This document shows positions 1,950-63,604 of a stretch of 64,000 bases of DNA, one piece after another. Under the pieces are notes generated by a model. The model saw only the letters and a list, made by a program, of their open reading frames with translations. It made no database searches and was not told the DNA's origin. Made by a program: the position numbers and the translations under genes. Source of the stretch: an uncultured bacterium. Its GTDB lineage: Bacteria; Auribacterota; Erginobacteria; Erginobacterales; Erginobacteraceae. Within the stretch, counting starts at the first letter, position 1, and the number at the start of each line of letters is the position of its first letter. The stretch covers positions 1,791 through 65,790 of the forward strand of contig CAWGIE010000045.1 of assembly GCA_963822585.1 (NCBI GenBank), given 5' to 3'.

Positions 1950-2023
1950 GCGCCCGTAGCTCAGATGGATAGAGCGCTTGCCTCCGGAGCAAGAGGTCGC
2001 GCGTTCGAATCGCGCCGGGCGTA
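1950..2023 (+). tRNA. tRNA-Arg (CCG), CCA not encoded
   Basis: Cloverleaf: acceptor GCGCCCG/CGGGCGT, D arm GCTC/GAGC, anticodon arm CTTGC-CTCCGGA-GCAAG, T arm GCGCG-TTCGAAT-CGCGC. Confidence 0.96.
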
Positions 2024-2075
2024 TTGAAGCAGGGATAAGGGGGAAGTAGTAAGGGATAAGGAGATTTATCTTGGG

Positions 2076-2109
2076 CCCTCTCCCGTTATTAATGACGGGA
2101 GAGGGTTTT
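2076..2109 (+). terminator. Intrinsic terminator after tRNA-Arg
   Basis: CCCTCTCCCGT/ACGGGAGAGGG stem followed by TTTT. Confidence 0.7.
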
Positions 2110-2117
2110 AAGTAGGC

Positions 2118-2226
2118 GGATAGAGCGCCCCGACACCTCCGGTGTCGGGGAGGTCGCGCGTTCTCAGCCGGAGGCTGATGCGCCTCCGGCGCAGAATCGC
2201 GCCGGGCGTATTGAAGCAGGGATAAG
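2118..2226 (+). pseudogene. Degenerate tandem copy of the tRNA-Arg 3' two-thirds plus downstream flank, with altered anticodon arm and a 30-bp insertion in the T loop
   Basis: GGATAGAGCG, AGGTCGCGCGTTC and GAATCGCGCCGGGCGTATTGAAGCAGGGATAAG are identical to parts of 1967-2039; the 5' acceptor strand is missing. Confidence 0.85.
2164..2193. mobile_element. 30-bp double-hairpin insertion element (copy 1)
   Basis: TCAGCC-GGA-GGCTGA + TGCGCC-TCC-GGCGCA splits the T loop TTC|GAAT relative to the intact tRNA. Confidence 0.8.
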
Positions 2227-2416
2227 ATTTAAGGGATAAGGGGTAAGAGTGCTGCCTGCGGCCCCTCTCTCGACCAGAATGGCGGGAGAGGGGATTTTTT
2301 TAACCTGGATAGAAGACTTCGATCAAACGGGGATGGCTGACACTCATTTGATCGGCGGCGTTTTTCAATCTTAATTCCCTCTCCTGCCGGCCGCCGACGG
2401 CCGGCCGGAGAGGGAA

Positions 2417-2914
2417 TTAGCTCCATTCTTCTTTAAGAGTGTCCCGGCGGGGCTTGTAGACGGTCTCGTAGAAGTAGCGCTGGGACTTGAGCAGGGGCTT
2501 GCCCGCCTCCCGGCAGATGGCGACCGCCTCCTTCCAGGCTTTCCGGAACTGCTCCTTATCCGGGAAACGGTCGGCGATCTGTCTCCGGAAGGACTGAGGG
2601 GTCTGCACCTCGTCCCCGATCATGAACAGGGTCTTCCCGTCCAGCTTCACCGAGTAGGCCATCTCGTCGCCGAGGAGGTAGGGCTGGAAGGACTCGGTGA
2701 GGGCCTTCGCCTTCGCCGGGGAGATCGTGACGTGGGGAAGCTTGACCTTTCCCGGTTTCCCGTGTCCCCGTCCTTTCTTGAATCCCCGCTTGGCGGCGGC
2801 GTAGAAGATGGCCCGGTTGAGGCCGAAGCTCTTGGCCGAGCTGACCGGCAGGCCGAGCACATAGGCCCGGGCCGCCTGGAGTATCGCCATTACCTGGAAC
2901 CGTCCGATCGCCAT
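2417..2914 (-). CDS. Hypothetical basic protein (165 aa)
   Basis: RBS AAGGAGG upstream; host-like codon usage; N-terminal GRFQVMAILQAARAY...GLNRAIFYAAAKRGF looks conserved, function not recognised. Confidence 0.75.
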   Translation of the reverse strand: MAIGRFQVMAILQAARAYVLGLPVSSAKSFGLNRAIFYAAAKRGFKKGRGHGKPGKVKLPHVTISPAKAKALTESFQPYLLGDEMAYSVKLDGKTLFMIGDEVQTPQSFRRQIADRFPDKEQFRKAWKEAVAICREAGKPLLKSQRYFYETVYKPRRDTLKEEWS

Positions 2915-3142: not shown

Positions 3143-3736
3143 CTACCGCCCTTTTATCTTCCTCCAGAACTCACTGGCCTCGGGGCAGTCTCTTCCCACC
3201 AAATATTTCGAGTTCAGTTTCTTGATCACGATCCCCTCGCCGCCGTCGGCAATCGCCCGGTTCAGTTCTTCCTCCAGGTCGGTAAACGGTCTGCCCTCGA
3301 TCAGACGGAAGGGTTCTTCCCAGGGGAGTGTCTTGAGGATGGCCTTGCGCTCTTCCAGGGAGTGATCCCCCATGAAGCTGCCCCCGTGATAGACAAGGTC
3401 GAAGATGTAAATGATCGGCTGGACGTTTTTCTTCCCGGATAAAGCAGTGGGAATGAAGCGGCGTCCGCCTTCGGCGTAAAGTTCGGCGTCGAGGAGCGTC
3501 CCCGGGGGGATGAGCTTCTTCGCGATCGCGGCCGGGCCCGGGAGCTTGGCCGTCCAGTCCGGTGCTTTCTTCAGCCGTCTCCCCCAGAACTCGACTTCGC
3601 CGTCCGGGCGGCGGAGCACCTGCAGCCGCCAGCCGTCGATCTTCGGCTCCACGATCCAGTCCTCTTTCTTCAGCTTCTCCCCGAAGTAGGGGATGGGCTG
3701 GAGGAGCCAGATGGGGGAGAGGGGGGAAGAGTTCAT
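3143..3736 (-). CDS. Minimal ATP-dependent DNA/RNA ligase-like protein (adenylation domain only)
   Basis: Motif I EPKIDGWR, III LLDAEL, IIIa YIFDL, IV EGIVIK, V WRKIK; ends right after motif V with no OB fold. Confidence 0.85.
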   Translation of the reverse strand: MNSSPLSPIWLLQPIPYFGEKLKKEDWIVEPKIDGWRLQVLRRPDGEVEFWGRRLKKAPDWTAKLPGPAAIAKKLIPPGTLLDAELYAEGGRRFIPTALSGKKNVQPIIYIFDLVYHGGSFMGDHSLEERKAILKTLPWEEPFRLIEGRPFTDLEEELNRAIADGGEGIVIKKLNSKYLVGRDCPEASEFWRKIKGR

Positions 3737-52563: not shown

Positions 52564-52593
52564 TCAGCCCGAGGCTGATCAGCCTTTGGCTGA
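52564..52593. mobile_element. 30-bp double-hairpin insertion element (copy 2)
   Basis: TCAGCC-CGA-GGCTGA + TCAGCC-TTT-GGCTGA splits GTTATTT|GGTGCTT, which is uninterrupted in the family F copy near 26668-26681. Confidence 0.8.
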
Positions 52594-63574: not shown

Positions 63575-63604
63575 TCCGCCGGAGGCGGATCAGCCTCTGG
63601 CTGA
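63575..63604. mobile_element. 30-bp double-hairpin insertion element (copy 3)
   Basis: TCCGCC-GGA-GGCGGA + TCAGCC-TCT-GGCTGA inside an ACTTTAG(G/A)CACTT tandem repeat. Confidence 0.75.

Follow-up and report, generated by a model that had tools for sequence, protein, structure and literature searches.

The window analysed here is a stretch of 64,000 nucleotides (nt) of contig CAWGIE010000045.1 (assembly GCA_963822585.1) from an uncultured member of the Erginobacteraceae, and its subject is a tRNA-Arg(CCG) gene followed by tandem units that repeat the 3′ part of the gene and carry small hairpins in place of, or within, the tRNA arms. The genome, here termed G000, is a 4.51-Mb draft in 48 contigs with an estimated contamination of 7.8% and 46 tRNA genes. 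Calls by ARAGORN and by the Rfam tRNA model in Infernal, the latter at the gathering score and again with E allowed up to 10, agreed on a single tRNA in the window, the functional tRNA-Arg(CCG) at 1950-2023 on the forward strand (66.6 bits), of which the part from 1967 onward constitutes repeat unit 1.

The sequence-only reading of the locus had reported that a block from the D loop through the downstream flank recurs some 150 to 190 bp further on, and a repeat search of the window combined with segment-wise alignment of the units bore this out, with spacings of 151, 157 and 187. The D-loop block GGATAGAGCGC at 1967-1977 returns at 2118-2128 (11/11, spacing 151), and the variable region with the 5′ strand of the T stem at 1993-2006 returns at 2150-2163 (14/14, spacing 157). 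The next 54 nt (2007-2060) correspond to 2194-2247 with 85% identity, and 2073-2105 corresponds to 2260-2292 with 76%, both at a spacing of 187. The 3′ half of the T loop, the 3′ strand of the acceptor stem and 16 nt of trailer are identical between the copies at 33/33 positions, with 17/17 in the tRNA part, and the longest exact repeat at the locus measures 33 nt. All retained tRNA-derived blocks of copy 2 together with this 16-nt flank are identical to the gene (58/58), whereas its distal flank agrees with unit 1 at 49/80 positions.

Unit 2 (2118-2210, forward strand) is a remodelled, 5′-truncated tRNA copy reaching from the D loop to the 3′ end, with its tRNA-derived blocks intact (11/11, 14/14, 17/17), and is not a tRNA gene. 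Its 5′ strand of the acceptor and D stems is missing, a terminator-like hairpin precedes it, and the promoter scan gave it no promoter of its own. When both copies were put to the tRNA models, a check that the sequence-only reading had proposed, only 1950-2023 was called, and copy 2 gave no match even at E up to 10. No Rfam family was found on copy 2; the sub-threshold Rfam matches (CrfA, RsmW, miRNAs) were due to chance and only those to tRNA were real. Elsewhere in the genome the 11-nt D-loop block recurs exactly four times, each a chance match in coding DNA.

Two arms of the copy have been rebuilt, both as first described from the letters alone. In place of the 15-nt anticodon arm stand 21 nt that retain CCTCCGG, and the inverted repeat and the alignment together delimit a perfect 10-bp hairpin, CCCCGACACC-TCC-GGTGTCGGGG, at 2128-2150 on the forward strand. 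Folded as single-stranded DNA (ssDNA), the replacement arm reached -15.2 kcal/mol versus -7.0 kcal/mol for its parent. In the T loop, exactly 30 nt (2164-2193, forward strand) separate GTTC from GAATC; they are a double-hairpin module of the form TCAGCC-GGA-GGCTGA + TGCGCC-TCC-GGCGCA that sits at TTC^GAA. The insert adds 30 nt exactly and duplicates no target bases; in this absence of a target-site duplication it differs from a miniature inverted-repeat transposable element. The T arm with the module folded at -21.4 kcal/mol on either strand versus -6.9 kcal/mol for the parent T arm, which is about three times more stable.

Trailer 1 (2024-2117, forward strand) contains short repeats of the GGGATAAGG type, a hairpin at 2076-2105 followed by four T residues only (a weak terminator) and the junction TTTTAAGTAGGC. 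Trailer 2 (2211-2301, forward strand), which is probably the ancestral trailer, contains GGGATAAGG repeats and a terminator hairpin at 2262-2293 with a run of seven T residues (2295-2301). Units 1 and 2 each end in these CCCTCTC...GAGAGGG hairpins, a third such hairpin lies at 2372-2419, and all three, listed as unit ends in the sequence-only reading, were recovered as inverted repeats. The third has a GC-rich palindrome, GCCGGCCG-CCGA-CGGCCGGC, inside the loop of a CCCTCTCC/GGAGAGGG stem. Since GGATAGA occurs again at 2307-2313 (within TGGATAGA, 2306-2313), one period past 2118, the third hairpin may close a decayed third unit (2306-2419, forward strand). Period and motifs thus weakly suggest a locus of three units with increasing decay. 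No integrase, cargo or open reading frame (ORF) was found in the 94 nt (2024-2117) that separate gene and copy, and the only nearby frame is an unsupported ORF of 65 aa on the reverse strand (2229-2426).

The orthologous locus was inspected in five relatives, the congener G001 and the family members G002 to G005, as had also been proposed. In each of the five, a single tRNA-Arg(CCG) stands with a single short trailer and a single terminator hairpin. With a single copy in 5/5 relatives, congener included, the duplication is specific to the lineage of G000. The tRNA-Arg(CCG) of G005 is 100% identical to that of the window. Hairpin 2 and the T7 run behind it correspond, as orthologues, to the terminator found at the single-copy locus of G001, and the trailer of unit 2 scored 93/95 in alignment to the G001/G003 trailers versus 70/76 for unit 1. 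Because the unit 2 trailer aligns better to the orthologous trailers, unit 2 is probably the displaced original gene end rather than a fresh duplicate. A 151-nt segment from the D loop through the weak terminator (unit 1) would now complete the working gene, and the older 3′ part with trailer and terminator (unit 2) and a still older remnant (unit 3) would have been pushed downstream.

The gene is preceded by a sigma-70-like promoter, TTGACA-16-TATATT, at 1853-1880 on the forward strand (11/12 consensus matches; 0.1 expected in shuffles), and its box TTGAC..TGCTATATT is also found upstream of the orthologous tRNA in G001, G004 and G005. The short repeats CCTTATCCC(T) of the leader, at 1900-1933 on the forward strand, are the complement of the GGGATAAGG repeats in trailers 1 and 2, and in the inverted-repeat search they paired 16/16 with 2232-2247. 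As the complementarity extends to 2031-2054 and 2218-2247, a long leader-trailer stem could potentially bracket the tRNA. Leader and trailer of G001 follow the same logic with other words (CCACT/AGTGG and TTATCCC/GGGATAA).

Inspection of the other tRNA flanks, likewise suggested beforehand, revealed the same remodelling elsewhere in the genome. By the criterion of an exact copy of the last 9 nt of a tRNA at most 600 nt downstream or 300 nt upstream, a downstream copy of the own tail was present at 14/46 tRNA genes of G000 and an upstream copy at 0/46, compared with 2/30 in the congener G001 and 1/34 in G002, which belongs to a module-free genus (g2) of the same family. Many of the tail copies in G000 are packed with other GC-clamped hairpins, mostly CCCCG...CGGGG. 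The loosely defined CCCGAC...GTCGGG class, to which the hairpin at 2128-2150 belongs, was found 36 times in G000 versus 5 times in the reversed control.

The T-loop insert belongs to a dispersed repeat family. Its 24-nt core has 6 exact copies in the 4.51-Mb genome. Defined as two adjacent 15-nt units T-NN-GCC-NNN-GGC-N'N'-A, the double module was detected in 76 copies when at most two substitutions were allowed, and 15-nt units with perfect 6-bp stems numbered 166 versus 8 in the reversed genome. The units have the forms T-NN-GCC-NGA-GGC-N'N'-A and T-NN-GCC-TCN-GGC-N'N'-A; they begin with T-NN-GCC and are without a GTAG head, and the flanks of the module read TTN / NAA. All perfect doublets (46/46, including 3 irregular second loops) had the purine-rich loop (NGA/NAA) first and none the reverse order. 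From this single fixed order the module is a fixed inverted dimer, for which two folds are available, a pair of mini-hairpins or a single hairpin of 9 bp.

Nineteen of the 76 modules are located in T loops of tRNA fragments, adjoining 10 of the 46 tRNA genes: Thr-TGT, Gly-TCC, Ile-GAT (inside an rRNA operon spacer), Leu-CAG, Leu-GAG, Leu-CAA, Ser-CGA, Pro-TGG (five tandem units), Pro-GGG and the Arg-CCG of the window. The genome has 1050 TTCGAA sites versus 55 T-arm-like sites, so with 19 modules in T loops the preference is for the T arm and not for the hexamer alone. The TGCGCC unit comes first, in tRNA sense, in 17/19 T-loop copies; the window copy is inverted. The remaining modules lie inside short tandem repeats or in a composite repeat of about 200 nt (family b), of which filled and empty sites are both present (attattg^aaattccgaag), and modules were also found nested in one another. 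As introns of working genes the modules were rejected: their removal in silico restored a convincing tRNA at 1/69 sites, a pseudo-tRNA-Ser.

The module pattern was present in 5/41 related genomes, G000 included: G000 (n = 29), G001 (n = 30), G003 (n = 39), G004 (n = 3) and G027 (n = 2, which is one palindromic site read on both strands), with no hit for the reversed pattern. A scan across phyla with one genome per species gave at least 120 module stretches, and those listed were all in metagenome-assembled genomes or single-cell assemblies. The labels among the stretches listed were Patescibacteria (candidate phyla radiation, CPR), Chloroflexota, Planctomycetota, Omnitrophota, Ignavibacteria, Bacteroidota, Binatia, Deltaproteobacteria, Gammaproteobacteria and others. 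Five distant genomes had 3, 10, 12, 9 and 18 module sites (control 0). In distant genomes T-loop modules again occur in tRNA fragments by the parent gene (Ser in L028, Asn in L068, Val in L095, and further in L046 and L069), D-loop contexts are found in L005 and L103, and modules in short tandem repeats, including those of CPR, and nested modules are also seen. A GIY-YIG ORF accompanies the fragment in L069, and a Bacteroidota contig has a GIY-YIG ORF plus a module-bearing tRNA fragment in tandem. An unrelated public run contains a contig with an identical 61-nt unit of T arm plus module in tandem. Only one contig of a viral collection had the pattern, so the module is not phage-borne.

Rebuilt tRNA ends with the architecture of window copy 2 were also found outside G000. 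In G003, which belongs to another genus, two tandem units of 108 nt follow tRNA-Arg(TCT); they begin at GGATAGAGC, carry CCCCGACA/TGTCGGGG in place of the anticodon stem around the unchanged local loop, and continue with the local T stem, the module oriented as in the window and the local acceptor end. The anticodon-arm swap is present in pseudo-tRNA-Arg copies of G003, L252 and L253. In a metagenome scan with the start of unit 2, 2/17 matches were pseudo-tRNA-Arg copies with the swap on unrelated contigs, and the other 15 were chance matches. T-loop modules follow the same tRNAs (Thr-TGT, Gly-TCC, Ile-GAT, Leu-CAG, Ser-CGA and Pro-TGG) in G001, G003 and G004.

Several further observations concern the same class of spacer. 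In the rRNA operon spacer of G000 (C8:82996-83319) and of G003 (L141), downstream of tRNA-Ile, an inverted copy of the 3′ end of this tRNA stands on either side of a unit of T arm, module and acceptor, an arrangement conserved between the two genera. In the spacer 3′ of tRNA-Thr(TGT) in G003 (L149) and G001 (L132), the initial 23 nt of the tRNA (acceptor 5′ strand and D arm) recur exactly, in inverted form, ahead of a T-arm-plus-module unit, so that the units consist of direct and inverted tRNA pieces. Another element, GGTGAGCTTG...GAGCGAA(G)CGAAGT, takes the place of the 5′ half of the T loop in tandem tRNA-tail units after tRNA-Thr(CGT) in G000 (C19:150700-150955) and after tRNA-Met in G002 (L187), one of the two genomes being without the double-hairpin module. 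A marine metagenome contig (run X6) matches 2158-2241 with 33 extra letters at 2158/2159, inside the 5′ strand of the T stem; they form a CCCGC...GGGG-type stretch, a further hairpin-type insert in the copy of a relative.

The window carries two further module copies, one at 52564-52593 (C45:54354) within tandem repeats TTGTAAT/TTGTTAT and one at 63575-63604 (C45:65365) with CTTTAGGCAC repeats on both sides. At the site orthologous to the former, the contigs of G001 end inside the repeat. The sequence at 2928-2981, ACTACGAATTACGCGAATTACGCGAATT, belongs to a dispersed repeat that G001 and G003 contain in dozens of near-exact copies, and its words also open the composite repeat of about 200 nt that bears the family-b modules. 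Of the neighbouring ORFs on the reverse strand, the adjoining one of 165 aa (2417-2914) had no Pfam match, and the one of 197 aa (3143-3736) had as its only match the adenylation domain of ATP-dependent DNA ligases (PF01068, 7e-19).

The best reading of the locus, held with fair but limited confidence, is that of a tRNA-linked repeat of cast-off tRNA gene ends, in which tiny hairpin repeats have settled, at the DNA level, in a displaced 3′ part that is dead as a tRNA; the confidence applies to repeat and colonisation jointly. Small GC-rich palindromes would have entered loops of hairpins already present, at three sites: the module at the exact centre of TTC^GAA, the palindrome of the T loop, a CCCCGAC...GTCGGGG element for the anticodon stem, and a GC palindrome in the loop of terminator 3. 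The 30-nt module would act as a non-autonomous single-strand-hairpin element and would spread through single-stranded hairpin DNA. An element at the DNA level is favoured by the exact 30-nt indels, the filled and empty sites, the nesting, the non-tRNA contexts and the inverted copy at a palindromic target, as well as by the equally high ssDNA stability of both strands, the absence of the copy from five orthologous loci, its place downstream of a terminator-like hairpin and the lack of an Rfam match. The suggestion of the sequence-only reading that copy 2 is a dead duplicate recording hairpin-writing events comes near to the data (no tRNA call, a lost 5′ part, a dispersed insert family with filled and empty sites), the copy being probably the displaced original and not a fresh duplicate.

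A number of observations weigh against this reading. A long-dead copy should show point changes, and an identity of 58/58 beside a flank of 49/80 requires a recent event, gene conversion or selection; the oddity is eased if unit 2 is the displaced original, because the tRNA sequence is conserved between lineages and the trailers are not. The recurrence at tRNA-Arg(TCT) of G003 looks more deterministic than random colonisation. Orthologous T-loop modules stand in three genera between unalignable spacers, and the TGCGCC unit comes first at 8/10 loci when each locus is counted once, both of which would also fit a function. Neither of the mobilisers considered tracks the module. The Y1 transposase (PF01797) was found in 36/41 relatives regardless of the module, and none of its 8 loci in G000 has a module within 1.5 kb on both sides (0/8). 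GIY-YIG (PF01541) was found in 41/41 genomes with or without the module, which makes it uninformative as a correlate, and there is no GIY-YIG gene at the window locus. The published SRM motif gave 50 matches in G000 versus 34 in the reversed and 49 in the shuffled genome and is not enriched.

With regard to Y1, one single unit lies 1.4 kb from one PF01797 locus. At C35:201600-203500 of G000, a broken Y1 frame (1 TGA) stands between arrays of another hairpin, CCCAGGGATTCTCCCTGGG, which is a classical arrangement of the RAYT/REP kind (REP-associated tyrosine transposase with repetitive extragenic palindromes) and unrelated to the module.

A hairpin-specific nuclease may drive the process, with mini GIY-YIG proteins as candidates, and the choice of any one named enzyme would be doubtful. 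Seven small GIY-YIG ORFs (81-95 aa with PF01541) were found in G000. Split tRNA genes laden with hairpins (Met, Asp, Ser and an unnamed T-arm pair) contain or adjoin four of the seven, and a fifth (C17:1181) is bordered by inverted hairpin motifs. The SRM motif was found neither at the window locus nor within 600 nt of the seven ORFs, and an NCBIfam search of the mini GIY-YIG proteins gave weak sub-threshold matches only. At C23:68250-69750 of G000, an ORF of 94 aa is located between a 5′ tRNA-Met fragment, capped by three CCCCG...CGGGG hairpins, and an intact tRNA-Met, into which its last 12 codons extend; two hairpin-laden 3′ fragments lie downstream.

Excerpts of one paper describe the Ssn proteins as single-domain GIY-YIG nucleases of about 94 aa, found with hundreds of SRM/NTS hairpin repeats, beside which they bind and cut ssDNA (Chenal et al. 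2025, PMC11893778); the word tRNA has 0 occurrences in PMC11893778. G000 resembles what these excerpts describe in having hairpin repeats and small GIY-YIG genes (7), with an IS-like repeat-gene-repeat layout at C17:1181, and it differs in that the published SRM pattern is not enriched and no GIY-YIG gene stands at the window locus. By analogy the GIY-YIG link is a lead: the module may work like one half of a hairpin-repeat/nuclease pair, its membership being putative.

It is possible, although rather improbable in our estimate, that the tRNA genes of many bacterial phyla are the homing targets of a widespread and so far undescribed DNA system guided by hairpins, which displaces part of the gene and then draws on a small common set of GC-clamped hairpins to rewrite the anticodon arm, T loop and terminator loop of the cast-off copy. 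The 30-nt module would then be the signature of that system and a single-strand hairpin nuclease, mini GIY-YIG/Ssn-like or other, its engine. The window locus would be a gene-less unit, and the recurrent, site-specific swap of a stem with retention of the loop, seen at tRNA-Arg copies of unrelated organisms, a programmed step and not decay.

An unlikely alternative takes the locus as the gene-less relic of a selfish, tRNA-borne nuclease cassette, with a mini GIY-YIG (Ssn-like) gene once present between terminator 1 and unit 2 and with the hairpins belonging to the cassette from the start, as sites of recognition or immunity, and not settling there afterwards. The same layout with the gene kept is seen in G000 at tRNA-Asp, where terminator, GIY-YIG ORF and hairpin-laden 3′ fragment follow one another, and GIY-YIG ORFs also stand between a module-bearing pseudo-tRNA-Ser and tRNA-Ser and between the split, hairpin-bearing tRNA-Met and tRNA-Met. 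The Bacteroidota contig with its GIY-YIG ORF and module-bearing fragment in tandem agrees with this, as does the binding and cutting of single-stranded hairpin repeats by Ssn nucleases, as given in the excerpts of PMC11893778. The 12 nt from terminator 1 to unit 2 hold, however, no trace of a GIY-YIG frame, and such an ORF lies near only 3/19 T-loop modules, those of the tRNA-Ser cluster. The presence of GIY-YIG across the 41 genomes and the count of SRM motifs speak against a cassette as well, and so does the divergence of the mini proteins, which are 24-34% identical to each other and have UPF0213 proteins as their best solved relatives.

There is a small chance that copy 2 is a functional tRNA-derived RNA, the other alternative of the sequence-only reading; made from the tRNA-Arg transcript, it would be either a structured trailer or a small RNA such as a decoy or processing element, whose extended anticodon and T arms selection maintains. 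Such an RNA would account for the 58/58 identity beside the flank of 49/80, for the very stable fold (RNA z = -4.8) and for the retention of the local anticodon loop in the same architecture at tRNA-Arg(TCT) of G003. The two pseudo-tRNA-Arg copies among the 17 metagenome matches would agree with it, and so would the orientation bias and the conservation of T-loop modules across genera, which includes the certainly transcribed rRNA operon spacer. The copy is absent, however, at the orthologous locus in 5/5 relatives and is situated behind a terminator-like hairpin with no promoter of its own. The module also occurs away from tRNA sequences, in either orientation and with one copy nested inside another; the two DNA strands are alike in fold stability, and no Rfam family matched.

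That the tandem structure is an assembly artefact or chimera not found in the cell is very improbable: the draft has 48 contigs and 7.8% estimated contamination and no public run contains the locus, but a longest exact repeat of 33 nt appears too short for repeat-collapse misassembly, the same architecture was assembled independently at many loci of many genomes, and the unrelated public run has the identical 61-nt unit in tandem. Four public runs searched for the locus yielded only tRNA-like or module-like pieces of other organisms, with the flanks uncovered, and are silent on both expression and assembly; the best DNA run shared 0.10 of the words of the locus, and no RNA run was listed with it.

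Among known systems, the tyrT locus of Escherichia coli has tandem tRNA-linked repeats that include the tRNA 3′ end (rtT RNA). The likeness to tyrT proposed in the sequence-only reading holds for the gross layout, tandem units after a tRNA gene including its 3′ end, and does not extend to an Rfam match, rtT being absent from the 14 matches of the window at E up to 10. Unlike tyrT, the window units are remodelled by dispersed hairpin modules, and the phenomenon recurs at 14/46 tRNA genes of G000. In Neurospora mitochondria GC-rich palindromes flank tRNA genes, and Allomyces mitochondria have double-hairpin elements. These are likewise small, mobile GC-rich (double) hairpins tied to tRNA genes or intergenic DNA, but they are organellar and of unrelated sequence, and we know of no insertion of them into T loops of tRNA fragments.

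The small dispersed repeats SDR4-6 of heterocystous cyanobacteria, said to have been described by Elhai et al. in 2008 in Genome Res 18:1484, are embedded in tandem short repeats and nested; to our knowledge they have no link to tRNA gene fragments. SDR5 is inserted inside the HIP1 palindrome according to an excerpt of PMC4390886, SDRs are reported only from Nostocaceae in an excerpt of PMC5861425, and their function is given as unknown as of 2026 in an excerpt of PMC13756078. Compared by description only, both are very small hairpin modules (21-27 nt for the SDRs, 30 nt here), and both sit precisely inside a palindrome, HIP1 for SDR5 in the excerpt and TTC^GAA for the module. Tandem-repeat embedding and nesting, familiar from the SDRs, were seen for the module, which unlike the SDRs of these excerpts occurs in many phyla, the window host not being a cyanobacterium; the closest look-alike loci are in genomes labelled as PVC group.

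REPs are defined by a conserved GTAG head 5′ of the palindrome. In REP/REPIN systems with RAYT (Y1) transposases, the repeated unit is an inverted doublet of short palindromes, as stated in an excerpt of Bertels & Rainey (2011, PMC3116915). The module shares with REPINs, as portrayed there, the inverted palindromic doublet, single units that resemble decay products and ssDNA hairpins; it differs in its 30 nt without spacer, in the missing GTAG head, in the absence of a Y1 gene flanked by modules (0/8) and in a consensus that is common to several phyla and not species-specific.

Integrating elements leave partial tRNA genes with attL/attR repeats, according to an excerpt of van der Gulik et al. 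(2023, PMC9897764). Like such att relics as there described, the locus has a tRNA 3′ part as a direct repeat downstream of the intact gene, the displaced piece being the older. Unlike them, it has only 94 nt between gene and copy without integrase or cargo, a copy that starts in the D loop, and hairpin remodelling. A clean case was seen in G001 (L234) 3′ of tRNA-Gln(CTG), where an insert of about 540 nt with coding potential is followed by a clean, unremodelled 3′ tRNA copy; it looks like a classical small integrated cassette and, being without hairpins, a plain cast-off end.

By analogy, the module is thus most like the cyanobacterial SDRs, the REPINs and the Ssn/SRM hairpin repeats, and none of the compared systems joins a multi-phylum 30-nt double hairpin with T-loop insertion in displaced tRNA ends. 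A literature search, to which the supplements of PMC11893778 did not belong, returned no account of this arrangement, and matches to the module sequence were primers.

The findings would extend very small mobile hairpin repeats, such as the SDRs of one cyanobacterial family, to many phyla, and would link them to a nearly universal and defined target, the T arm of tRNA genes. tRNA genes are classic landing sites of mobile DNA, and a marking or disarming of cast-off tRNA ends would bear on the turnover of integration sites and on the confusion that partial tRNA genes cause in annotation. The role of mini GIY-YIG single-strand nucleases outside Neisseria may also be informed, and loci of this kind can easily be searched for with the 30-nt module as a marker. 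Within its class the window locus is ordinary; what gives it particular worth is that an intact reference lies 94 nt upstream, against which each change can be read base by base.

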